A stretch of DNA of 64,000 nucleotides from Thermotogota bacterium. GTDB lineage: Bacteria; Thermotogota; Thermotogae; Petrotogales; Petrotogaceae. The DNA lies in contig JBNJGY010000001.1 of assembly GCA_051748045.1 (NCBI GenBank), positions 32,001 to 96,000 of the forward strand, in the 5' to 3' direction. The notes under the pieces are model-generated. The model had not been told where the DNA came from. It ran no database searches and worked only from the letters and a program-made list of their open reading frames with translations. Of this stretch, positions 583 to 62,890 are shown piece after piece. How positions within the stretch are numbered: position 1 is the stretch's first letter; every line of letters starts with the position of its first letter. The position numbers and the translations under genes were made by a program.

Positions 583-1053
583 CTAATAATCTTCTTCTAT
601 CAGTACTTTATTTATTAACAAATAATCCCCTGATTTAAATTTGCTTATATCAGGGTTCGACTTAAAGAATTCTTTCAATTCTTCTTTATCATAGTATTTT
701 ATTCTAACTTTATTATAACAAATAATTTCATTTTTCTGAAAATCAATTTTAATTATATTGTGTATGCCTTCCATTTCTCTGATTATTTTTAATTCTTTAA
801 TAAAGTCATTTGAGTAATTAACTATTGGTATTGAAGGATATTTTATATCATCTACATAAAGCATTTCTCCAAAAAAATCATGATAGAAGTATCTATTTTT
901 ATATTCTACTGTATATAGAGGATTTGACTTTTTGATTGGATTACCATATAAATTATTCCCCCTATTTTTAAGGGGGAATAATATCAATATAATACTTGTA
1001 ACAAACATTATTAATAAAATAAGCTTAGCCATAAAAAATGACAGCTTCATCAA
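583..1053 (-). CDS. Hypothetical bitopic membrane protein (positional FtsQ/DivIB candidate)
   Basis: 156 aa with one N-terminal hydrophobic segment; overlaps the gyrB stop and lies immediately upstream of ftsA. Confidence 0.6.
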   Translation of the reverse strand: MMKLSFFMAKLILLIMFVTSIILILFPLKNRGNNLYGNPIKKSNPLYTVEYKNRYFYHDFFGEMLYVDDIKYPSIPIVNYSNDFIKELKIIREMEGIHNIIKIDFQKNEIICYNKVRIKYYDKEELKEFFKSNPDISKFKSGDYLLINKVLIEEDY

Positions 1054-2975
1054 ACATCTAATTCCTTTACTTTATATGCATTGTCTTCAATAAATGTTCT
1101 TCTAAGAGATGGGTCATCTCCCATCAAAATATTTATAGTTTCATCAGCTAACTCAAGGTCTTCTATCTTAACTTTTAATAGTTTTCTGTGATCAACATCC
1201 ATTGTTGTGTCCCATAATTGGTCAGGATTCATTTCCCCTAAACCTTTATAACGTTGTAATTTCCATTTTTTACCTTTGTATTTTTCTTTCATTGCTTCTA
1301 ATTCTTCTTCTGTAAAAAGATAAATTTGTTGTTTGTCTACTTCTATTCTATATAGTGGTGGAACTGCTATATAAATATTTCCATTTTCAATTAATTGTCT
1401 CATGTATCTATAGAATAAAGTTAATAATAATGTTCTGATATGTGCACCATCAACGTCAGCATCTGTCATTATTATAATTTTACCATATCTCAGCTTTGAA
1501 ATGTCGAATTCTTCTCCTATACTTGTACCCAACGCGGTTGTTATATTTACAATTGTTTCACTTTTTAATAATCTTAATAAGTCTTTCTTTTCAGCATTAA
1601 TAATTTTCCCTCTCAATGGTAATATTGCTTGGAAATATCTATCTCTAGCTTGTTTTGCGTTACCTCCAGCTGAATCCCCTTCGACTATAAAAATTTCTGA
1701 TTCACTCAAATCTTTAGATAAACAATCAGCAAGTTTTCCTGGAAGTGTTGAATTTTCAAATATTGATTTTCTTTTAACGCTATCTCTAGCTCTTTTAGCA
1801 GCTAGTCTTCTTTTTGTTGCTATTTTAATTCTTTCAAAAATTTGTTTTGATTCTTTTTGATGAGAATCAAAATATATAGTAAGATATTCATTAACAATTT
1901 GATTTACAGCTTCTCTAGCAGCTTTTGAACCTAGTTTTCCTTTGGTTTGCCCTTCAAATATAGGTTCGGCCATTTTTATGTGTAAAATAGCTACAAGACC
2001 CTCTCTGACATCATCACCAGTAAAATTATCATCTTTTTCTTTTAAAACATTATACTTTCGTGCATAGTCATTACATAATCTTGTTAGAGCGGCTTTAAAA
2101 CCCGATTCATGTTCTCCACCATCTATAGTTCTTATATTATTTACAAAAGATATGATACTTGTTTCATCTGAATTTGTATAAACCATTTCAAGATCAAGTT
2201 GCATATCCGGTTCATCTTTTTTCACTTGATAAGAACCATTAATGCTTATTGATTCTGATATTGGGTTTTTCTTTTTCTTTTTTAGATTAAATTCTAAAAA
2301 CTCTTTTAATCCACCAGAAAAATGAAATTTTAATTTCTTATCTTTTTTTCTATCTTCAAATTCTATTGTCAATTCAGGATTTAAAAAAGCTATTTCTCTC
2401 AATCTAGTTTCAATTGAATGTGTATCAACAGCAATATCTCCATCTTCAAATATTTCCTGATCTGGTCTGAATTTTATATAGGTTCCATTTTGATCTGTTT
2501 CTCCAATTACCTGTACTGGCTCTTCTGGTACACCTCTAACATATTTTTGATAATGAATTTTTCCTTTTTGAAAAACTTTAACTATCATATATTCAGATAG
2601 AGCATTAACTACAGAAGCTCCTACACCATGAAGACCTCCTGAAACTTTATATGCTTTTTTATCAAATTTACCTCCAGCATGAAGTACTGTCATAACTACT
2701 TCAAGGGTAGATCTTTTCTCTGAAGGATGCATGTCTACAGGAATACCTCTACCATCATCTGTAACTTCTACACTATCATCAGCATTTAGAATTACTTTCA
2801 AATTTTTAGCATATCCATTTATATGCTCATCTATACCGTTATCTACTATTTCATAAACCATATGATTTAAACCAGCTTGAGAAGTAGAACCAATATACAT
2901 ACCAGGTCTCATCCTAACTGGTTCTAATCCCTTTAATACCTTAATCTGCTCACCAGAATACTCATTGTTCAACAT
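1050..2975 (-). CDS. gyrB: DNA gyrase subunit B
   Basis: LEPVRMRPGMYIG, EIVDNGIDE, GGLHGVGASVVNALS, TOPRIM EGDSAGG, MTDADVDG and RYKGLGEM motifs; GGAGGTG RBS. Confidence 0.96.
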   Translation of the reverse strand: MLNNEYSGEQIKVLKGLEPVRMRPGMYIGSTSQAGLNHMVYEIVDNGIDEHINGYAKNLKVILNADDSVEVTDDGRGIPVDMHPSEKRSTLEVVMTVLHAGGKFDKKAYKVSGGLHGVGASVVNALSEYMIVKVFQKGKIHYQKYVRGVPEEPVQVIGETDQNGTYIKFRPDQEIFEDGDIAVDTHSIETRLREIAFLNPELTIEFEDRKKDKKLKFHFSGGLKEFLEFNLKKKKKNPISESISINGSYQVKKDEPDMQLDLEMVYTNSDETSIISFVNNIRTIDGGEHESGFKAALTRLCNDYARKYNVLKEKDDNFTGDDVREGLVAILHIKMAEPIFEGQTKGKLGSKAAREAVNQIVNEYLTIYFDSHQKESKQIFERIKIATKRRLAAKRARDSVKRKSIFENSTLPGKLADCLSKDLSESEIFIVEGDSAGGNAKQARDRYFQAILPLRGKIINAEKKDLLRLLKSETIVNITTALGTSIGEEFDISKLRYGKIIIMTDADVDGAHIRTLLLTLFYRYMRQLIENGNIYIAVPPLYRIEVDKQQIYLFTEEELEAMKEKYKGKKWKLQRYKGLGEMNPDQLWDTTMDVDHRKLLKVKIEDLELADETINILMGDDPSLRRTFIEDNAYKVKELDV

Positions 2976-3282
2976 CAGTGCACCTCCGTATTACTTTAAT
3001 TTCTTTTACAATTTCTTCATCTAATTTTTTATTGATCTTTTCTATCAAATCGTTTGAGCTGAAAAGAATTTCTTGCATCACGACATTATCTTTGCAAGAA
3101 ACAATGAGTAATTTATCTCTACTGAAGTAGTTGTTTATTTCAGTATCTTCTTTCAAATTTTCATCAATTATTTCTTTCCAGATTTTTTTGATTTCATTTA
3201 TAGAATAAGATTTTTTTATTATCGGGTTTTTTTTAGATAATCTCTTTAAAAAATCACCTATTTTTTCTTCCAAATCATACAC
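2962..3282 (-). CDS. DUF721/DciA-family protein
   Basis: 106 aa with a W-x-x-I-I pattern and a C-terminal 'LIEKINKKL...VKEIKVI' segment typical of the family; directly upstream of gyrB. Confidence 0.7.
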   Translation of the reverse strand: MYDLEEKIGDFLKRLSKKNPIIKKSYSINEIKKIWKEIIDENLKEDTEINNYFSRDKLLIVSCKDNVVMQEILFSSNDLIEKINKKLDEEIVKEIKVIRRCTDVEQ

Positions 3283-4102
3283 CTTCCCAATTTGTTTGAT
3301 CTTCTAAAATGAATTCTTTCCAATTGTCCATTAGTGTTTCTGTCACTAGTCCTGGAACGGCAAAAGTAAAATCAGGAAAAATCCTTCTAACAGGTACTAC
3401 TCCCATTGAAGTGTGGGTTAAGAAAATTTCATCAGCTGATAACAATTCCCATGCTTCAACATTTTGTTTTTCTTCAACTTCCATACTCAAGCTTTTTGCC
3501 AAAGATATTATATTACTTCTTGTTATTCCTGGTAGAACTCCAGAAGAAATATGTGGAGTGATTAAAACGTTTGAATTCACATAAAAAATGTTAGAATAAG
3601 TACACTCAGTTACATAACCGTATTCATTTAACAAAATAGATTCATAAAAATAATCGTATTTATTATGAATGTATTTTATAAATCCGTTTAATGGAGTTTT
3701 TACATAATAAGGTATCACTGGAGAAAATGGTTTTCTTTCTCTAGCAATATTTATAACAACACCATCTTCAAATACTTCATTTTTAAACTCTAATCTTTCC
3801 ACAAAACAATAAAATGTATTTTTTAAAGAAGTTTGAGGAGTTATATATATTCTAAACCTATATTCAGGGTAGTCATGAATTCTAATAGCCTGGTTTATAA
3901 TTTCTAAGAAATTTTTAAATTCAGGTATTTCAAAATTCATAAAATCAGCTGATCTTTTGAGTCTTTTATAATGTTTTTTCATAGCAAATGGTACTTTTGA
4001 GTAGGTTCTAAATACTTCATATACTGAATTTCCGTTCATAAAACCTTGATCATCTGCGTTAATAAGTGGATATTCTATCCATTCTTTTCCATTAAAAAAC
4101 AT
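3275..4102 (-). CDS. Class IV PLP aminotransferase (branched-chain/D-amino-acid aminotransferase or ADC lyase family)
   Basis: G-x-S-V-Y-E-V-F-R-T-Y, HYKRL, TECTYSNIF, LPGITR and ADEIFLT motifs; start moved to ATG 4102 (MFFNG). Confidence 0.88.
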   Translation of the reverse strand: MFFNGKEWIEYPLINADDQGFMNGNSVYEVFRTYSKVPFAMKKHYKRLKRSADFMNFEIPEFKNFLEIINQAIRIHDYPEYRFRIYITPQTSLKNTFYCFVERLEFKNEVFEDGVVINIARERKPFSPVIPYYVKTPLNGFIKYIHNKYDYFYESILLNEYGYVTECTYSNIFYVNSNVLITPHISSGVLPGITRSNIISLAKSLSMEVEEKQNVEAWELLSADEIFLTHTSMGVVPVRRIFPDFTFAVPGLVTETLMDNWKEFILEDQTNWEGV

Positions 4103-5372
4103 CTGAGACCACCCCTTCATTTATAACTTTTTTAATTTTGACTTCTTTAAAAATATTTTCTTCAAATTGTTTATTTTCTACGATATGATTTATATAGTAC
4201 TCATCATACCCTCTATTTTTTTCTTCAAGTAAAATCTTAACTTTTTTATCTATCATTTTAAAAAGATATTTTTCTGTAGATTTTTTTGATATTTCACTTA
4301 ATTTTTTATTTCTATCTTTTTTGATATTTCCAGGAACTTGTGGTTTTAGTCTTTCTGCTTTTGTATTTGGTCTAGCGGAAAATCGAAACCCATGAACTTT
4401 TAATAATCTATTATCTTTAATAAATTTTAATAATTCAGAAAAATCTTCTTCTGTTTCTCCAGGGAAACCCACAATGATATCTGCTGTTATTGAAAAATCT
4501 TCGTCATATTTCCTTAAATGGTTAAAAGCTTCTATAATATCCTTCTTTGTGTATTTTCTACCCATTTTTTCTAAAACATTGTTAGAAACATGTTGTAAAG
4601 AGAGATGTACATGATTTTCAAAAATTTCTGATTGATTTATTATTTTTGAAAACTCCTCATCAATCATGTCTGGATATAATGAACTAATTCTAATCCTGAT
4701 TTCTTTTTCTTTAAATTTAATTGCTATATCATTTATCAATTGTTTAAAATCGTAATCAGTTCCATATCCATAATAACCAAGATTTATACCTGTCAATACA
4801 ATTTCTTTAATACCTTTGTTTATAAAGTTGGATATTTTACTTAATATTATATTTTTTTCTACGCTTCTTATTTTTGTCCCTCTGGCAAAAATAATTCTAC
4901 AATAACTACAAGCGTTATAACAACCTTCTTCAATAGGCAAAAAAACTCTTGTCCTTTCTCCAAGAGGGTTATCTGGTATTTCTATTTTATCTTCTTTTCT
5001 TAACCAATAAGCCTTATCTACTATTATTCCTTCTTCATCTATTTTTTCATCAATATATTTTTTTTCCAAATTACCTAAAACTAAATCTGCGCCAATTTCT
5101 TTTATTTTTTTTGCATCTGTATGAGAATAACAACCAGTTGCAATTATTTTTATTTTAGGATTTTTTCTTTTTAATCGTCTTATTGTCTGTCTAATCTTTC
5201 TTTCAGCTTCAGAAGTAACTGTACAAGTATTTAATATATATAAATCACTGTCTCCATTTTTTTCATCAAAAATAATATCATAATTATTATTCCTTAATTT
5301 TTCAGCCATTTTTTCTGTTTCTGCTTGGTTTAACTTACAACCATATGTTATAAAAGATATTTTTTTATTCAT
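4092..5372 (-). CDS. mtaB: tRNA t6A37 methylthiotransferase MtaB (radical SAM)
   Basis: TYGCKLNQAE, NTCTVT and TGCY (UPF0004 domain); CYNACSYC; IVGFPGETEEDF. Confidence 0.9.
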   Translation of the reverse strand: MNKKISFITYGCKLNQAETEKMAEKLRNNNYDIIFDEKNGDSDLYILNTCTVTSEAERKIRQTIRRLKRKNPKIKIIATGCYSHTDAKKIKEIGADLVLGNLEKKYIDEKIDEEGIIVDKAYWLRKEDKIEIPDNPLGERTRVFLPIEEGCYNACSYCRIIFARGTKIRSVEKNIILSKISNFINKGIKEIVLTGINLGYYGYGTDYDFKQLINDIAIKFKEKEIRIRISSLYPDMIDEEFSKIINQSEIFENHVHLSLQHVSNNVLEKMGRKYTKKDIIEAFNHLRKYDEDFSITADIIVGFPGETEEDFSELLKFIKDNRLLKVHGFRFSARPNTKAERLKPQVPGNIKKDRNKKLSEISKKSTEKYLFKMIDKKVKILLEEKNRGYDEYYINHIVENKQFEENIFKEVKIKKVINEGVVSDVF

Positions 5373-56025: not shown

Positions 56026-56048
56026 CAAGGGGTATTAAGCCCCTTGTT
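56024..56048. terminator. Terminator hairpin between the convergent aldolase and ABC genes
   Basis: AACAAGGGG-TATTAAG-CCCCTTGTT. Confidence 0.75.
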
Positions 56049-57825
56049 TTATAAATTTGAATTGAGATAAGTATAAATCGTAATAATCGTTTCTCATTTC
56101 AATTAGTTCTTCATGAGTTCCCATTTCGCTAATTTTTCCATCTTTAATATAAATAATTCTGTCTACATCTCTAATGGTTGATAGTCTATGTGCAATTACA
56201 AAACTAGTTCTATTTTTTAGTAGTTTTTCGATTCCTAATTGTACCAATCTTTCAGTTTTTGTATCAATATTTGATGTAGCCTCATCTAAAATTAATATTT
56301 TGGGATCAGCTAATAATGCTCTTGCTAAAGATATTAACTGTCTTTGCCCAACAGACAACCTTGAGCCTCTTTCGTTTACTTCAGTCTCATAACCTTTTTC
56401 TAAACTCATCACGAAATCATGTAATCCTACGGTTTTAGAAGCTTTTATTATTTCTTCTTTTGTGGCATCTAATTTGCCGTATTTAATATTTTCATAAATA
56501 GTTGTAGAAAATAAAAATGTATCTTGTAGCATAATTCCCATATGGGTTCTCAAATTTTCCAAATCTATATCTCTTAAATCGTGACCATCTAAGAATATAC
56601 TACCTTGTGTGGGGTCATAAAACCTGGATATCAAATTTACCATAGTAGTCTTTCCAGCTCCTGTAGGACCTACAAATGCTATAGATTCACCTGGTTTAAC
56701 CTTCAAATTTATATTTTTTAGAACTTGAGTATCTTTATCATAACTAAAGCTAACATTTCTAAAATCTAATTCTCCATCTATGTTGTCTAATCTTTGTACA
56801 CCATTTTTGTTGTTTTCAACAACAGGTTTTATATCTAATATTTCAAATATTCTATCTGTAGCTGCAAAACTGGTTATTAAAACATTATAAAAGTTTGCTA
56901 TGTTCCAAATAGGTCTCCAAAATTTTGTTATATACCAAGTAAAAGCGAATATTTCTCCTATTGTAATTAAATTTTGACCTACAAGTCCAAAACTATACCA
57001 ATATATGGCTATTAACCCCAAACCATAGGATAGTTCAATAAGAGGTCCAAATTTATATTGTAGTCTTGCTGCATGAATAAAGGAATCGACAGCATTACCA
57101 ACATAACCTCTAAAATTATTTTTTGTAAAACTCTCTGCTGTAAAAGATTGTACTACTTTTATACCTGAGAACGTTTCATGGGTATAGGCATTTAAATTAG
57201 ATCTCTTTTTTCTATAGTTCTCCCATCGTTTTCTCCCTATTATCTGTATTACAAAAAGTGCCAAAAAAAGTGGGGGCATAACCATCATTGTTATACCAGT
57301 TAGTTGTGCGTTCATTGAAACCATAATAATTACAACAGATATAACTGTAATCACTTCAGGAATTAAACTTGTAACTAAAGAGTTAAAAAATTGCTGTAAA
57401 GAGTTGATATCTCCCATAATCCTTGCTAAAATTTTTCCTACAGGTCTTTCATCAAAAAAATTGAAAGATAATTTTTGAATATGATTGTAAAGATCATGCC
57501 TTATGTTTACAACTATATCGTTACTAATCTCTCCCATTTTGATCATTCTCATTTTTGAGACCCACATAGCAAATAAATTAACCAGTAACATCCCTATACT
57601 CAACCAAACTAATCCTATAACATTTTCTTGGACTATATAATTATCTATTGCCAATTTCAACATAAAAGGATTTAAAAGTTCAACACCAATAACAAAAAGC
57701 ATCATCATGGATACCAAAAATGTTTTTAATTTATATGGTTTTAAATAAGATATCAATATTTTAATTATCTCAATATTTGATTTTCTCTTTGTATTTTCAT
57801 CTTGTTTTGTAGCGTTTAGACTCAT
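56035..57825 (-). CDS. Heterodimeric ABC exporter, half-transporter 2 (canonical Walker B, degenerate signature)
   Basis: TMD plus NBD with GPTGAGKT, LSVGQRQ, ILDEAT and AHR. Confidence 0.93.
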   Translation of the reverse strand: MSLNATKQDENTKRKSNIEIIKILISYLKPYKLKTFLVSMMMLFVIGVELLNPFMLKLAIDNYIVQENVIGLVWLSIGMLLVNLFAMWVSKMRMIKMGEISNDIVVNIRHDLYNHIQKLSFNFFDERPVGKILARIMGDINSLQQFFNSLVTSLIPEVITVISVVIIMVSMNAQLTGITMMVMPPLFLALFVIQIIGRKRWENYRKKRSNLNAYTHETFSGIKVVQSFTAESFTKNNFRGYVGNAVDSFIHAARLQYKFGPLIELSYGLGLIAIYWYSFGLVGQNLITIGEIFAFTWYITKFWRPIWNIANFYNVLITSFAATDRIFEILDIKPVVENNKNGVQRLDNIDGELDFRNVSFSYDKDTQVLKNINLKVKPGESIAFVGPTGAGKTTMVNLISRFYDPTQGSIFLDGHDLRDIDLENLRTHMGIMLQDTFLFSTTIYENIKYGKLDATKEEIIKASKTVGLHDFVMSLEKGYETEVNERGSRLSVGQRQLISLARALLADPKILILDEATSNIDTKTERLVQLGIEKLLKNRTSFVIAHRLSTIRDVDRIIYIKDGKISEMGTHEELIEMRNDYYDLYLSQFKFIKQGA

Positions 57826-57826
57826 A

Positions 57827-59563
57827 TTAGATCACCTCGTTTGCAAAAAAGCTAATATCTTCAAAATCTTTGAATTGATCTTTGTAAATTTTATAATATT
57901 CTCCTTTTTTGTCTACTAATTCATCATGTGTTCCCATTTCAAAAATTTCCCCATCTTTTAAATATATTATTTTATCTGCATTTTTAACTGCTGAAATTCT
58001 GTGTGCTATTATAAAAGTTGTTATATTTTTGTTGCTATCTTTAATATTTTTTAGTAGTTCATATTCTGTATCCATATCCAATGCACTTGTAGCATCATCC
58101 AAGACAATCATTCTCGATTTTTTGGCTAAGGCCCTTGCTATTGTCATTCTTTGTTTTTGACCACCAGATAACCCAACGCCTCTTTCTCCAATTAAAGTGT
58201 TGTATTTTTTATTCATTTTTTCTACAAACTCTTCCACACAGGAAATTTTTGCAACTTCTACTAATTCTTTTTGGCTTAATTCATTATTTCCCATCTTTAT
58301 ATTTTCCTCTACAGTTTCTGAGAAAAGAAAGCTGTCTTGAAAAATGTATGAAATATTATCTCTAAGGTTTTTTAAATTGATTGATCTTATATCATTTCCG
58401 TCAATTAATATATTCCCTTTTGTAACGTCATAAAATCTACCAATTAAATTAACTAATGATGTTTTACCTGAACCTGTTTCTCCCATTATGGCGACTGTTT
58501 CACCAGGGTTAATTTCTAAATTAATCTTTTTTAAAACATAATCTTCATCATATTTTAGGTAAACATCATGAAAAATAATTTTCCCTTTTTCTATTTTTTC
58601 ACCTAAGTCATTTAATATTTCTGGTTTATTCGACATTATTCTATCAATTTTTTTTGCTGATGTTGTTCCAAGAGATATCATATTTGTTAATAACCCCATC
58701 ATTCTCATTGGCCAAATCAACATCCATACGTATTGAGTAAAAGCTACTAAAACACCTAAAGATATTTGTTCATTAATGACAAAAGCCCCGCCAAAAACAA
58801 CTAACAAAACTATTGTCATATTACCCAGAAATTCCATCACCGAGAATAATGATCCAAATATTTTTGTCCTTTCTATGTTCAGTTCATAATTTTTTTTATT
58901 CATATCTAAAAATTTTAATGTTTCATGTTTTTCTCTTGCAAAAGCTTTCACCAATCTAACTCCAGCTATATTTTCTTGAGCTGTAGTATTTAACTTTGCA
59001 GCATGATCACTTATTTTATCGTAAACTTTAGATACTTTTTGTCTTAATTTCACTGCAACATAAGCTATTAAAGGCATTCCAGCCAGTGTTATCAAAGCTA
59101 ACTTCCAGTTTAATGAAAATAATATAAAAGAAGCCACAGAAAAATATATGATATTTTCAACAAAAACAGCTAATGCAAATCCGAGCATATCCCAAACATT
59201 TTCCGCATCTTGTCCTATTCTAGACATTAATTCTCCAGTATTTTGTTTGTCAAAGAATTTAAAATCCATCTTATGTATATGTTTAAACAAATCATTTCTA
59301 ATATCTCCTAAAATTTGAGTAGCTATATAGTCATAAGTAAATTCTTTAAAATATCCAGAAAAAACTCTAACTACTGTCATTATAGCTATACCTATTAACA
59401 CAGTTTTTAAAGATTCTACACTATTATTACCAAGAGCTTCATCTATAAACATTTTACTCAACATTGGCCAAAACATATCTGAAATGATAAAGGCCATCAT
59501 AGATAAAACAGCGACAAATAACAACAATTTATAATTTTTATAATATTTTAGTATTTTTAACAC
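57827..59563 (-). CDS. Heterodimeric ABC exporter, half-transporter 1 (canonical signature, Walker B E-to-D)
   Basis: TMD plus NBD with GETGSGKT, LSGGQKQ, IVLDDAT and AHR; GTG start with GGGGTG RBS 7 nt upstream. Confidence 0.93.
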   Translation of the reverse strand: MLKILKYYKNYKLLLFVAVLSMMAFIISDMFWPMLSKMFIDEALGNNSVESLKTVLIGIAIMTVVRVFSGYFKEFTYDYIATQILGDIRNDLFKHIHKMDFKFFDKQNTGELMSRIGQDAENVWDMLGFALAVFVENIIYFSVASFILFSLNWKLALITLAGMPLIAYVAVKLRQKVSKVYDKISDHAAKLNTTAQENIAGVRLVKAFAREKHETLKFLDMNKKNYELNIERTKIFGSLFSVMEFLGNMTIVLLVVFGGAFVINEQISLGVLVAFTQYVWMLIWPMRMMGLLTNMISLGTTSAKKIDRIMSNKPEILNDLGEKIEKGKIIFHDVYLKYDEDYVLKKINLEINPGETVAIMGETGSGKTSLVNLIGRFYDVTKGNILIDGNDIRSINLKNLRDNISYIFQDSFLFSETVEENIKMGNNELSQKELVEVAKISCVEEFVEKMNKKYNTLIGERGVGLSGGQKQRMTIARALAKKSRMIVLDDATSALDMDTEYELLKNIKDSNKNITTFIIAHRISAVKNADKIIYLKDGEIFEMGTHDELVDKKGEYYKIYKDQFKDFEDISFFANEVI

Positions 59564-59607
59564 TTTCCATCACCCCGATTTTTCTCTTCTATTTTTTATC
59601 CACCAAT

Positions 59608-59685
59608 CTATATTAAAGATATGATTTCGTAATACTCTTTTTTATTTTTTACCTTCATATTATTATTTTTTTGATTATTTTTCAT
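59608..59685 (-). CDS. Micro-ORF C, 25 aa: MKNNQKNNNMKVKNKKEYYEIISLI
   Basis: Manual translation; RBS GGGGTGG precedes ATG; C-terminus paralogous to micro-ORF B. Confidence 0.7.
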   Translation of the reverse strand: MKNNQKNNNMKVKNKKEYYEIISLI

Positions 59686-59725
59686 AATTACCACCCCATG
59701 TTTTAGCTTCGTCTGATAGTTTGGA

Positions 59726-59806
59726 TTAAATTAAAGAAACAACTTCAAAATATGATTTTTTCTCTTCTTGTTTAGCTTGATTGTTTTGTATGTTTTTCTT
59801 TTTCAT
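59726..59806 (-). CDS. Micro-ORF B, 26 aa: MKKKNIQNNQAKQEEKKSYFEVVSLI
   Basis: Manual translation; RBS AAAGGGGGTGA precedes ATG; C-terminus paralogous to micro-ORF C. Confidence 0.72.
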   Translation of the reverse strand: MKKKNIQNNQAKQEEKKSYFEVVSLI

Positions 59807-59832
59807 GATTTCACCCCCTTTGTGACATAATT

Positions 59833-59868
59833 CTAACTAACAAAACTCATCTCTAATTTTTTTGACAT
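59833..59868 (-). CDS. Micro-ORF A, 11 aa: MSKKLEMSFVS
   Basis: Manual translation; RBS GGAGGTG 7 nt upstream; first ORF after terminator 2. Confidence 0.55.
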   Translation of the reverse strand: MSKKLEMSFVS

Positions 59869-59888
59869 TTTATTACACCTCCAATTTA

Positions 59889-59922
59889 TAAAAATAAAGC
59901 CATGGCTTTATTAGCCATGGCT
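59889..59922 (-). terminator. Leader terminator 2
   Basis: Minus strand AGCCATGGCT-AATAA-AGCCATGGCT-TTATTTTT (arms at 59913-59922 and 59898-59907). Confidence 0.75.
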
Positions 59923-59993
59923 GATTTAGTTTGTTTTATCATTCGATACTATTATCCTACCTTTATAAAACATAGAAAATAATAATAATCTAT

Positions 59994-60025
59994 AAAACAA
60001 AAGCCATGGCTGGATAGCCATGGCT
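59994..60025 (-). terminator. Leader terminator 1
   Basis: Minus strand AGCCATGGCT-ATCC-AGCCATGGCT-TTTGTTTT (arms at 60016-60025 and 60002-60011). Confidence 0.78.
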
Positions 60026-60042
60026 CGAATATATAGAAATAA

Positions 60043-60159
60043 CTAGATTATTTCTTTTCTACTTCGAGGCAAAGCTATCCCATGATTTGATTTTAATATA
60101 CCGCACATATTAAAACTAACTCTTAATTTGCCGGTGTTTACAACTGCTAAATTAATCAT
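60043..60159 (-). CDS. Leader peptide, 38 aa: MINLAVVNTGKLRVSFNMCGILKSNHGIALPRSRKEII
   Basis: Manual translation; AAAGGAGG RBS 8 nt upstream; the 3' end is complementary to terminator 1. Confidence 0.72.
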   Translation of the reverse strand: MINLAVVNTGKLRVSFNMCGILKSNHGIALPRSRKEII

Positions 60160-60219
60160 GATATTGCCTCCTTTTTTAAAATATTTTATCACTTACAATT
60201 TACACTGTTTATATTTCTT

Positions 60220-60258
60220 GTTTTATACGTTATAGTTACTATAGAGTAAAGTATAACG
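60220..60258 (-). promoter_or_regulatory. Candidate MerR-type promoter/operator for the leader-ABC transcript
   Basis: Minus strand TTTACT (60250-60245), then dyad TATAGT-N-ACTATA (60231-60243) in the spacer, then TAAAAC at 19 bp (or TATAAA at 17 bp). Confidence 0.5.
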
Positions 60259-60274
60259 GATAATTTTTATCTAT

Positions 60275-61009
60275 TTAAACTTCATTGTAATATTCGAAAT
60301 ATTTTATTTCTAAATCAAAGTTATTTTTAATATAATCTCCAAGTTTTTTAATTCCAAAAGTTTCTGTTGCATAATGCCCAGCATGGATAAAGTTCACACC
60401 CATATCTTTTGCTATATCTCTAGTATGTTCTTCTACAGACCCTGTTATATAAGTATCTATTTCTGGGTCTAATTTTTCAATGAAATTAGCCCCTCCTCCT
60501 GAAACAATTGCTATATTTTCGGCGTATTCTCTATTTTGATAGCATAATAAGCTTTGGTTTTTTTGCAATATTTCTTTTAAGTTTTTTGTTAATTTTTGAA
60601 ATGGAACTTTTTTAGGCATTCTACCTTTAAAACCAAATGAAAATTTATCTACTATTTCTATACCTAGTTTCCTCAATAATTCTGAGTTATTTCCATATTC
60701 CAAACTCGCATCTAATGGCAAATGATATCCCATTAAAGATATATCATTTTTTATGAGGTTTTCAATTCTTATTTTTTTATAACCAGTTATATCTATTACA
60801 CCTTTTCCAAAAAGACCATGATGAACCAATATAACGTCTGGATTCCACTCTTTTATTTTTTCAAAAAAAGTGTTATTATAAGATACTCCTAAAGCAATCT
60901 TTTTTATTTCATGTTTTCCTTCTACCTGAATACCATTTTTACAAAAATCCTCAAAATCTTCTACATTTAATATTTCATTTAAATGTGATTCTAATTGAAA
61001 TAAATTCAC
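60275..61009 (-). CDS. Nif3-like dinuclear metal center hexameric protein (YbgI/DUF34)
   Basis: DFCKNGIQVEG, LVHHG, YHLPLD, GNN, VSGGG and AGHYATE motifs. Confidence 0.93.
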   Translation of the reverse strand: MNLFQLESHLNEILNVEDFEDFCKNGIQVEGKHEIKKIALGVSYNNTFFEKIKEWNPDVILVHHGLFGKGVIDITGYKKIRIENLIKNDISLMGYHLPLDASLEYGNNSELLRKLGIEIVDKFSFGFKGRMPKKVPFQKLTKNLKEILQKNQSLLCYQNREYAENIAIVSGGGANFIEKLDPEIDTYITGSVEEHTRDIAKDMGVNFIHAGHYATETFGIKKLGDYIKNNFDLEIKYFEYYNEV

Positions 61010-61013
61010 TTAA

Positions 61014-61505
61014 TCACCTCTTATATCCTGTAATATTTCTCAGGAATTCATATCTTTTCTTTTTATCCTCTTCTTCTTCCACACCTTTTGGAGAATAACC
61101 ATCAACAACTCCCATAATTCCCCGTCCTTGCTCGGTTTCAGCTACTATTATCTGTAAAGGGTTGGCTGTGGCTGCAAAGATATTGACAATTTCTTGTACA
61201 TTCATTAGTTGATTTTTAATACTTATTGGAAAACCATTTTTAATTATCAGTACAAAAATATGCCCTGCTCCAATTTTTTTTGCATTATCAATTGCGGTTT
61301 CAACCAAGTTATCGTTATTCCCCTCATATCTTATTAAACATGGTCCTGATGCTTCATTAAATGCGAATCCAAACTCAAGATTTGGATTAACTGTAGAAAT
61401 AACTTCATATACATCTTCAACTGTTTTTATGAAATGTGATTGTCCAACTATGACATTTGTATCTTCTGGAATTTTTAAATCAACAACATCAAAATTTATG
61501 TTCAT
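61014..61505 (-). CDS. Adenosine-specific kinase family protein (DUF355)
   Basis: [26 protein letters not shown] and [10 protein letters not shown] motifs; ATG 61505 after GGGAGG. Confidence 0.88.
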
Positions 61506-61660
61506 TAATATCCCTCCCATAAAATTCTTCTTATATATATTTTAATTAATAATAATATAAAAATCAAGAAAGATTAATATTTAACATAAGATATTATTTT
61601 TTATTTAATTATTTGATGTTATAATTTAGATGAGTTTGTTAACCCAACAGGGGGTGGAGT

Positions 61661-62890
61661 ATGAAGATAGGTAAGTTTGCAAAAAAAAATAATTTAACTG
61701 TTGACACTATAAGATATTATGTAGAACTAGGACTTCTATTACCTGAAAAGGTTAATAATCAATTTTCTTTTGATGAGAAATGCCAAAATGATTTAGAAGA
61801 AATAATCAATTTAAAAAATATGAGGTTTTCAATTTCTCAAATTCAAAGTATTTTTTCAACAAGAAGATTTACTAAATTAATAAATGATGAGGAACTAAAT
61901 TATTATATATCTTTTTTTGAAAATAAAAAAAATGAACTTATAAAAGAAAAAAAAGAAATCGATAAATCAATTGATAAAATTGACAAAAAGATTGAAGATA
62001 TTAAAAATAGTTATGAAAAAAGAAACGTAGATTTGGGTATTCCTGTTTCTTTTTTAAGTAATTTATCTTGTCCTAAATGTAATAAATCTTTGAATTTAGT
62101 TAAAGGAAATATAGAAAATAATCAAATTTTTAATGGAGAACTCAAATGTAAGTGCGGATATGAAGCAAAAATTGAAGATGGAATTTTAATCACAGAGAAC
62201 GCAGAAACATATATGCCTGAAAACTTAGAAAAAGATAACCCAGGAAATATTTTTGTCAAAAAAACTAATATGTCTTTTGCGAATTTAATATATAAAGGTA
62301 TGTCTTGGATTTATAAAAGATTAAACCAAATAGATTTAAAAAATATAAATATTCTAGAAATTGGAACTGGTTCAGGTTTTTTCTTAAAAAAATTGATTGA
62401 GTCATTAGATGATACTTCTGTTTACATAGCAGTTGATAACAACCTAGAGTTTTTAAAATCTGCAAAAAAGTATTTACAAGCTATCGGTAAAGAAGCCAAC
62501 ATAGTGTTCATAGCTTGTGACTTTAAAGAAATCCCTTTACAAAATGATACTTGTGATATTTTACTAGATGTATATGGGACAGCTGACGACTCTTTGAATA
62601 AAGATTTTTACCCTATAAGAGATACTAAACACCTTTTAAAAAACAAAGGCTTTTGGTATGGAACATATATACATTTCAATGACAATTCAAAAACCTTGAC
62701 TACAATAAGCAGAGAAGCTAGAGAAAAATATAAGTCAGATTTCATAAGAAAATCTTTCGCAAGCAATGGATTTGAAGAAATAGAATCTAGTTTTTTAGGG
62801 AAAGCTACAAAATATGGAGAATCAGAGCCTTTTATTGTTGATGGAGACATAGTTAATCATTGGGGATTTGTTTGTAGAAAATATATATAA
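61661..62890 (+). CDS. MerR-family regulator fused to a Cys4 zinc ribbon and a class I SAM-methyltransferase-like domain
   Basis: MKIGKFAK...DTIRYYVELGLL HTH, coiled coil, CPKC...CKC and ILEIGTGSG. Confidence 0.85.
   Translation: MKIGKFAKKNNLTVDTIRYYVELGLLLPEKVNNQFSFDEKCQNDLEEIINLKNMRFSISQIQSIFSTRRFTKLINDEELNYYISFFENKKNELIKEKKEIDKSIDKIDKKIEDIKNSYEKRNVDLGIPVSFLSNLSCPKCNKSLNLVKGNIENNQIFNGELKCKCGYEAKIEDGILITENAETYMPENLEKDNPGNIFVKKTNMSFANLIYKGMSWIYKRLNQIDLKNINILEIGTGSGFFLKKLIESLDDTSVYIAVDNNLEFLKSAKKYLQAIGKEANIVFIACDFKEIPLQNDTCDILLDVYGTADDSLNKDFYPIRDTKHLLKNKGFWYGTYIHFNDNSKTLTTISREAREKYKSDFIRKSFASNGFEEIESSFLGKATKYGESEPFIVDGDIVNHWGFVCRKYI

Follow-up and report, generated by a model that had tools for sequence, protein, structure and literature searches.

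What does a long intergenic gap upstream of a pair of exporter genes contribute to their expression? We asked this question of a 64,000-nt stretch of the genome of a Thermotogota bacterium of the family Petrotogaceae (GenBank assembly GCA_051748045.1, contig JBNJGY010000001.1, positions 32,001 to 96,000), which we call the window. The gap spans 711 nt (59564–60274, minus strand), from the end of a NIF3-family gene at 60275 to two adjacent genes that code for ATP-binding cassette (ABC) half-transporters, ABC1 and ABC2. An earlier note on the window had described this gap as structured on the minus strand, and all the elements that it listed are indeed in place there, in the order leader open reading frame (ORF), terminator 1 (T1), terminator 2 (T2), three micro-ORFs of 11, 26 and 25 codons, ABC1 and ABC2. 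We consider it fairly probable that together they control an efflux-type heterodimeric ABC exporter, as a region that senses translation and works in more than one tier. Its first tier would be a ribosome-dependent transcription attenuator built on the leader ORF; in the second tier, the micro-ORFs located after T2 would be translated before the pump genes.

The leader ORF (60043–60159; 38 codons from the ATG at 60159, plus a stop codon at 60045–60043) has a GGAGG Shine–Dalgarno (SD) sequence 7 nt upstream of its start. Within this ORF lies a switch segment, R2 (60062–60085), which is complementary both to the ribosome-binding site (RBS) region of the leader itself, R1 (60153–60176, with the SD at 60171–60167 and the ATG at 60159–60157), and to the 5' arm and loop of T1, called R3. 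T1 occupies 59992–60029, with a stem at 60026–60001 followed by a U-tract; its 3' arm is R4. T2 (59888–59922, stem at 59922–59898, likewise followed by a U-tract) has arms identical to those of T1, and its 5' arm is R5. R1 is the proposed 5' strand of an anti-antiterminator, R1:R2, and R2 that of an antiterminator, R2:R3. We found three terminator-like sites on the two strands of the 59300–61700 interval, as compared with 0.4 ± 0.7 in 50 shuffled sequences, the third being T2 as it appears on the plus strand. The leader part folds with a z score of −5.8, which none of 100 shuffled sequences equalled, and the micro-ORF stretch shows no excess structure (z = 0.02). An Rfam search with the 59300–60500 interval (E ≤ 10) gave chance-level matches only and no family for the leader.

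The switch is conserved among the nine leaders that we compared. In what follows, genomes are designated by numbers (G000 is that of the window and G002 that of a congener), and f1 denotes a family, g3 and g9 genera, within our Thermotogota set. All nine leaders have the GGAGG-N7-ATG arrangement and an SD-led ORF of 24 to 42 codons that spans the switch segment and ends 12–28 nt before T1. Depending on the genus, R2 is read in one of two frames, which indicates that it is conserved as RNA. In each of the nine loci, the best partners of R1 and of R3 within the ORF body overlap, both being located on R2. The R2:R3 energies, −15.7 to −22.4 kcal/mol, were matched by none of 200 shuffled ORF bodies in seven loci, and by three and five of them in G003a and G009, respectively. 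Those of R1:R2, −15.6 to −24.0 kcal/mol, were matched by none of 200 in five loci, and by 1 in G002, 2 in G003a, 14 in G003b and 11 in G009.

Sequence variation between the leaders also follows the proposed pairings. In an alignment of the leaders (A2), 97.8% of the cells of T1 are paired and eight of its ten pairs show changes on both sides, a value as high being obtained with none of 500 shuffles. For the antiterminator, 87.7% of the cells are paired, versus 25–50% when the pairing is slid. Two of its pairs, 11:84 and 16:79, have changed on both sides in the genus Marinitoga (g9), and one of these two exchanged columns also co-varies with its T1 partner. In the same genus, the stretch from the RBS to the start codon and the arm and loop of T1 carry nearly identical 10 nt. 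Computationally, the leader therefore combines an SD-led short ORF, an intrinsic terminator before the pump genes and mutually exclusive antiterminator and anti-antiterminator pairings. A leader-peptide attenuator ahead of an exporter of the TM287/288 and BmrCD type had been postulated for this locus, and both the conserved order of the elements and the R1:R2:R3 complementarity support it.

To determine how widespread the leader is, we built a covariance model of its RNA from the nine sequences and searched 151 Thermotogota genomes with it. It found 15 places in 14 genomes. Fourteen of them, in 13 genomes, are leader sites, and they all belong to six genera of the single family f1. The fifteenth match (G111, E 0.0095) is outside f1 and was read as an ordinary terminator. 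The exact switch motif occurs in five real genomes among the 51 of the order; a match in G032, within a coding region, was ascribed to chance. A scan for the exact motif in public genome contigs returned three stretches, all from the G002 and G003 lineages. Six were found in metagenome contigs, of which four repeat those lineages; none represents a new lineage. The other two are chance matches inside GC-rich coding DNA. Over its full length, the gap of the window is 87% identical to that of G002, with T1, T2 and the switch segment unchanged and the T1–T2 spacer diverged.

At the 14 sites, the leader is nearly always 5' of the orthologous ABC pair. The pair is intact in the window genome, G002, G003, G006, G009, G018, G020 and G024; ABC1 is broken or truncated in G050, G004 and G012, and G015 was counted in neither group. 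The order leader, terminator, terminator, micro-ORFs that the earlier note had proposed to look for upstream of orthologous ABC pairs is thus kept in several genera. We also observed some unusual cases. In G004 and G012, which belong to genus g3, the leader and micro-ORFs are intact but ABC1 breaks off after 44 codons; it is followed by a 189-aa ORF devoid of Pfam match, and the rest of ABC1 is on other contigs, which reflects either a rearrangement or an assembly problem. Contig C22 of G003 carries a second leader copy (~4164–4426) with both terminators but without micro-ORFs, before a minus-strand gene (985–4110) for a 1041-aa protein, which has an N-terminal GNAT acetyltransferase domain and ~900 other residues without a family. 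Finally, in G010, a genome without an ABC orthologue, what remains of the leader includes T1 but lacks T2, and no pump gene follows it.

We propose that the position of the ribosome on the leader would decide between the alternative pairings. With no ribosome on the leader, R1:R2 would form, T1 would fold and transcription would stop. A ribosome that reaches the stop codon of the leader, between R2 and T1, would cover R2, so that T1 would again fold and transcription stop. In contrast, a ribosome held at or near the start of the leader would cover R1 and leave R2 free to hold R3, and the polymerase would pass T1. Inhibitors of initiation or of early elongation would be expected to hold the ribosome in this manner. 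By analogy, the mutually exclusive pairing of R2 fits the anti-antiterminator/antiterminator/terminator logic of the vmlR leader and, more loosely, that of bmrB.

One could argue that the ORF of the leader is incidental and that the RNA acts as a riboregulator by binding a protein or a ligand. The conservation of the switch segment as RNA in two reading frames is in line with this explanation, and the lack of an Rfam match leaves room for a new class of RNA. However, the SD-N7-ATG geometry is fixed, the ORF is always open across R2 and its stop codon lies 12–28 nt before T1 in all nine loci. Moreover, the partner of R2, R1, is the RBS itself. We therefore regard an incidental ORF as very improbable and retain the ribosome as the likely effector of the switch.

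Why would such a switch be followed by two terminators? In the window, a single self-complementary 10-mer makes up all four arms of T1 and T2, and hairpins of the T1 or T2 type are found nowhere else in the 2.41-Mb genome. This genome contains 687 terminator-like hairpins, among which we identified eight adjacent same-strand pairs. T1 and T2 form the only one of these pairs with common arms, of 10 nt as compared with at most 4 nt in the other seven. Two terminators, 7–78 nt apart, are present in 13 of the 14 leaders, and their 5' arms share 7–11 nt in 12 of these 13 loci. Arms taken from different genera share 4.2 nt on average, with a maximum of 8 (n = 130). Because their arms match, R4 and R5 can pair with each other over 5–12 bp. 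When the antiterminator was held and the 3' arm of T2 not yet made, the predicted probability of R5:R4 was 0.51–0.99 in all nine loci. The two terminators might thus constitute a relay, in which R4, freed when R2 holds R3, would pair with R5 while the 3' arm of T2 has yet to be transcribed, and a single decision would be passed kinetically through T2.

The other explanation is that T2 is a redundant, fail-safe copy of T1 that arose by duplication or gene conversion, with no relay and with basal leakage past T2. In G015 and G050, T2 copies T1 including its loop, which favours recurrent duplication or conversion, and the T2 hairpin wins at equilibrium, as detailed below. Leaders with several terminators are also known, as reported for ermK. 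However, a strong constitutive second terminator would block induction. In addition, the arms of T1 and T2 are alike in 12 of 13 loci across six genera although they differ between genera, and, with R3 held, R4:R5 is the helix predicted to appear first. In its complete form, with leakage as the way past T2, the fail-safe explanation appears possible but doubtful. As to the origin and use of the matching arms per se, we consider the odds of a kinetic relay and of simple redundancy by duplication or conversion to be roughly even.

Following T2, SD-led ORFs of 8–53 codons are found in all lineages. In the window, micro-ORF 1 (59833–59868, 11 codons) is directly 3' of T2 and is kept in G002; ORFs of 8–12 codons are similarly present after T2 in G009, G016, G012/G004, G020 and G024. 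Micro-ORF 2 (59726–59806, 26 codons) differs from its G002 counterpart by four base changes, three of which we read as synonymous, all our statements on synonymous changes being by-eye readings of alignments. Micro-ORF 3 (59608–59685, 25 codons from its ATG) is a paralogue of micro-ORF 2 in its C-terminal part; relative to G002, it shows an in-frame 3-nt indel, with the C-terminal part kept. All three are SD-led. More generally, the C-terminal halves of the micro-ORFs are kept within genera and the N-terminal halves drift. Copy numbers range from zero to six, with a recent tandem duplication in G003. The last micro-ORF ends 4–24 nt before the start of ABC1, or overlaps it, in most lineages; the distance is ~41–44 nt in the window and in G002. 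The micro-ORF peptides gave no match to Pfam or the protein atlas, and exact look-ups returned only hypothetical proteins. A profile of the Marinitoga micro-ORF peptide has matches in 14 of the 51 genomes of the order, all of them in one family, the same as that of the leader, and eleven of its members have common invariant columns.

What could these small ORFs do? We consider that they are more likely to be second-tier upstream ORFs (uORFs) of the leader, comparable to bmrX, than exported cargo; like bmrX, they are positioned between the attenuator and the first pump gene. As uORFs they would most likely act in cis, by gating the translation or the stability of the pump mRNA. Their association with another type of pump is informative in this respect. 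In six Marinitoga genomes, a micro-ORF of ~39 codons is found 11–15 nt upstream of an efflux-type gene of the major facilitator superfamily (MFS), an assignment checked with Pfam for one of the six. In G020 (1260–1640 of the locus), the micro-ORF/MFS unit is equipped with a promoter-like site of its own, and the micro-ORF stop codon overlaps the SD of the MFS gene. That a short ORF occupies the leader position in efflux genes of two unrelated classes argues for a uORF acting in cis. In three of the six MFS loci, a paralogue of the ABC exporter lies upstream and ends in its own terminator.

It had also been suggested that the module encodes its own small peptides. SD-led micro-ORFs are indeed present and conserved in position, but the MFS context weakens the notion that the exporter carries their products. 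If these were cargo of the adjacent ABC pair, such as a pheromone, a leaderless bacteriocin or a phenol-soluble modulin-like peptide, the locus would be a stress-induced secretion module. Tandem SD-led micro-ORFs in zero to six copies, recently duplicated in G003, conserved as peptides within genera and adjoining an exporter in at least six genera would suit such a role. However, a micro-ORF directly precedes an MFS gene in Marinitoga, its stop codon overlapping the SD of that gene, and others occur without any transporter. In addition, G024 retains the pump without such a peptide, ABC1 and ABC2 consist only of ABC_membrane and ABC_tran, without a peptidase (C39) domain, no modifying enzyme is encoded next to them and the peptides are mostly hydrophilic as judged by eye. 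We consider a cargo role quite unlikely.

An action in trans is a further alternative: the micro-ORFs would code for small proteins that act in the cell under translation stress, and their position before pump genes would be operon hitch-hiking. It is prompted by stand-alone arrays with their own terminator, on contig C11 of the window genome and on contig C10 of G001, and by the invariant columns of the eleven peptide members. The peptides of the yrzI operon of Bacillus subtilis are a precedent for chloramphenicol-induced small proteins (PMC12067863, PMC10351889). Two SD-led micro-ORFs, of 34 and 36 codons, occupy the last ~250 nt of C11; a terminator and no transporter come after them, and the contig stops shortly before them. 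Of the two, the second matches the Marinitoga profile (E 2e-4 in a set of ~29,000 short ORFs). Contig C10 of G001 carries three stand-alone micro-ORFs. Nevertheless, the stop codon of the micro-ORF is close to, or overlaps, the start or the SD of the pump gene in most lineages, and no Pfam or atlas match points to a protein function. We find a trans-acting role unlikely and prefer to view the micro-ORFs as cis-acting uORFs.

Two bolder proposals can be formulated. In one, the twin terminators would be a relay attenuator working by strand exchange between their identical arms, with two gates and very low leakage. In the other, the micro-ORFs would be a new, lineage-specific family of nascent-peptide sensors (arrest peptides) serving both ABC and MFS pumps in Petrotogales-type Thermotogota. 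These proposals are put forward tentatively, as we consider them rather improbable.

The genes downstream of the control region are consistent with an efflux-type heterodimer. ABC1 (57827–59563, GTG start, 578 aa) and ABC2 (56035–57825, 596 aa), both on the minus strand, are each composed of ABC_membrane and ABC_tran domains and are thus half-transporters with a transmembrane and a nucleotide-binding domain. The reciprocal degeneracy that had been reported for the latter domains was found again: ABC1 has a degenerate Walker B motif (LDD) with a canonical LSGGQ signature, and ABC2 has a catalytic Walker B motif (LDE) with a deviant signature, LSVGQ. Such motif sets characterize exporters of the TM287/288 and BmrCD type, ABC1 being the counterpart of TM287 and BmrC and ABC2 that of TM288 and BmrD. 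The Asp-Asp pair is invariant in all 35 aligned relatives of ABC1. The best half-transporter matches in the Protein Data Bank, according to phmmer bit scores, are TM287 (3qf4_A, 324) for ABC1 and TM288 (3qf4_B, 402) for ABC2, with TmrAB and BmrC/BmrD behind them.

Orthologues of ABC1 (E ≤ 1e-125) are present in 12 of the 151 Thermotogota genomes, all from family f1. Within the order, they are at least 50% identical, versus at most 39% for paralogues. Named relatives of the pump include those of Tepiditoga, Oceanotoga and Marinitoga. Proteins of Clostridium, Caloramator, Fonticella and Thermoanaerobacterium are 52–55% identical to it, i.e. as similar as those of Marinitoga. The nearest relatives outside f1 are Clostridia-named, and there are none in the rest of the Thermotogota at the same threshold. 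This distribution suggests that the pump may have been exchanged between Clostridia and family f1. A search for plasmid-borne relatives yielded none above 40% identity (13 records).

We then considered how transcription of the region might start. Two minus-strand promoter candidates are predicted in 60183–60250, both with 17-nt spacers. The first has its −35 hexamer at 60250–60245 and its −10 hexamer at 60227–60222; the second has them at 60211–60206 and 60188–60183, with a TG-extended −10. The earlier note had described a MerR-style dyad promoter, possibly under the control of a nearby MerR-methyltransferase fusion. A dyad does exist near 60263–60223, with 15-nt arms that are 87% complementary, but its attribution to the MerR type did not hold. 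The best candidates do not have the over-long, 19–20 bp spacers of MerR-type promoters, and the dyad lies in a spacer that has diverged in G002, although the flanking hexamers of the first candidate are kept. A gene for a MerR_1 and methyltransferase protein (61661–62890, plus strand) is indeed located 1.4 kb from the leader, in divergent orientation and in the same neighbourhood as in G009, but two genes separate it from the leader. Its distribution largely refutes the link. No homologue (E ≤ 1e-10) was found in any of the seven g9 or three g3 genomes, of which six and two, respectively, have the leader. In G006, the homologue is 1 Mb away from the leader, and G001 has one without the leader/pump module. 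Control of the leader by this regulator is thus extremely unlikely. A small AT-rich hairpin (60257–60271, minus strand) immediately follows the stop codon of the NIF3-family gene; G002 and G009 have it at the corresponding position, and it may serve as a weak terminator of that upstream gene.

Some RNA data are available in the form of contigs from salt-lake metatranscriptomes, of which we used four of the eight listed runs. Both ABC genes are covered in part by contigs that match the window without difference, with possible DNA carry-over. One contig of 354 nt (59479–59832), also identical to the window, runs from micro-ORF 2 through micro-ORF 3 into the start of ABC1; it is compatible with their co-transcription and proves no more than that. 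A contig from run X2 jumps back 91 nt at 59690/59600, which may mean that a related strain has micro-ORF 3 in tandem duplicate, or else that the two paralogous ORFs were wrongly joined in assembly.

Several observations weigh against a translation-sensing control region as we propose it. For the first tier, T1 dominates in equilibrium folding, and a ribosome footprint on the first codons lowers the probability of T1 to 0.3 or less in only three of the nine loci (window genome, G006 and G018); the decision would therefore have to be kinetic, as in other attenuators. The compensatory changes of the antiterminator come from one lineage, and each is thus probably a single event. No codon bias in the leader ORF points to an inducer. 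No transcript ends were seen in the four runs, and as no RNA contig covers 59914–60147, this is evidence neither way. For the terminators, once the 3' arm of T2 is present, the T2 hairpin is favoured (0.67–0.96) despite a held antiterminator, which means that the relay can only be kinetic, and the R4:R5 helix of G006 comprises only 5 bp. For the second tier, micro-ORFs are found without a transporter on C11 of the window genome and in G001 and G018, and G024 has the pump and the leader but only a 12-codon ORF. When searched against the 28,917 short ORFs of the window genome and 55 ORFs downstream of T2, the Marinitoga profile found none of the micro-ORFs of the window, G003, G009, G006 or g3. 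Rae1 (PF05991, NYN_YacP), the factor that acts at bmrX, has no match in the 99.65%-complete window genome, the control search having found that of B. subtilis. Lastly, translation of the leader ORF and of the micro-ORFs is in both cases deduced from their SD-led reading frames.

Ribosome-sensing leaders of resistance and efflux genes have been well studied in Firmicutes. In a literature search, supplements excluded, we found none described for such genes in Thermotogota. The leader reported here offers a clean comparative example, in which the RBS serves as the anti-antiterminator strand, with three sequence variants in six genera. With terminators whose arms are alike and co-vary between lineages, a single decision may be able to control two gates. 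The micro-ORFs make up a small, conserved set of candidate uORFs for work on arrest peptides, common to ABC and MFS pumps, in cultured thermophiles. Regulation by such a leader also bears on the role of TM287/288-like exporters, whose natural substrates remain unclear.

How do these features compare with known systems? The earlier note knew of no description of this combination, which was overstated. In the bmrBXCD operon of B. subtilis, a heterodimeric ABC exporter is already preceded by a leader-peptide attenuator and by a cryptic ORF of 26 codons (PMC4191407, PMC10351889). The likeness extends to the alternative stem-loops of a leader ORF and an intrinsic terminator before an exporter with one degenerate site, to an ORF of ~26 codons between the attenuator and the first pump gene, and to the Walker B residues, Asp in ABC1 and Glu in ABC2, as with D500 of BmrC and E592 of BmrD in another report (PMC10632425). 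The terminator of bmrB is inside the leader ORF, whereas here it follows the ORF. Two arm-sharing terminators, an RBS that doubles as the anti-antiterminator strand and up to six micro-ORFs also set the present locus apart, as do the failure to detect Rae1 in the window genome and a pump that belongs to a separate clade. TM287/288 of Thermotoga maritima, the best match among solved half-transporters, and TmrAB are heterodimeric type IV exporters with the same asymmetric nucleotide-binding sites; they are not orthologues of ABC1/ABC2, however.

The closest parallel for the switch is the leader of B. subtilis vmlR, whose uORF lies in an anti-antiterminator hairpin; this leader also comprises an antiterminator and a terminator and responds to a ribosome stalled at initiation (PMC9226507). 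The three-state logic would be the same in both: when a ribosome halts on the first codons of the short ORF, the anti-antiterminator is blocked and transcription reads through. However, the uORF of vmlR as described there has three codons and controls an ABC-F protein, whereas here 24–42 codons run through the switch, the controlled genes code for a membrane exporter and there is a second terminator. The Salmonella mgtCBR operon similarly has a long leader, which contains two short ORFs and tandem attenuators (PMC3641672). In that operon, each ORF has its own attenuator and signal, in contrast with the single sensing ORF, the two look-alike terminators and the later ORFs located after both that we propose here. 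The general control scheme is thus known, and the arrangement found in these Thermotogota is a variant of it.

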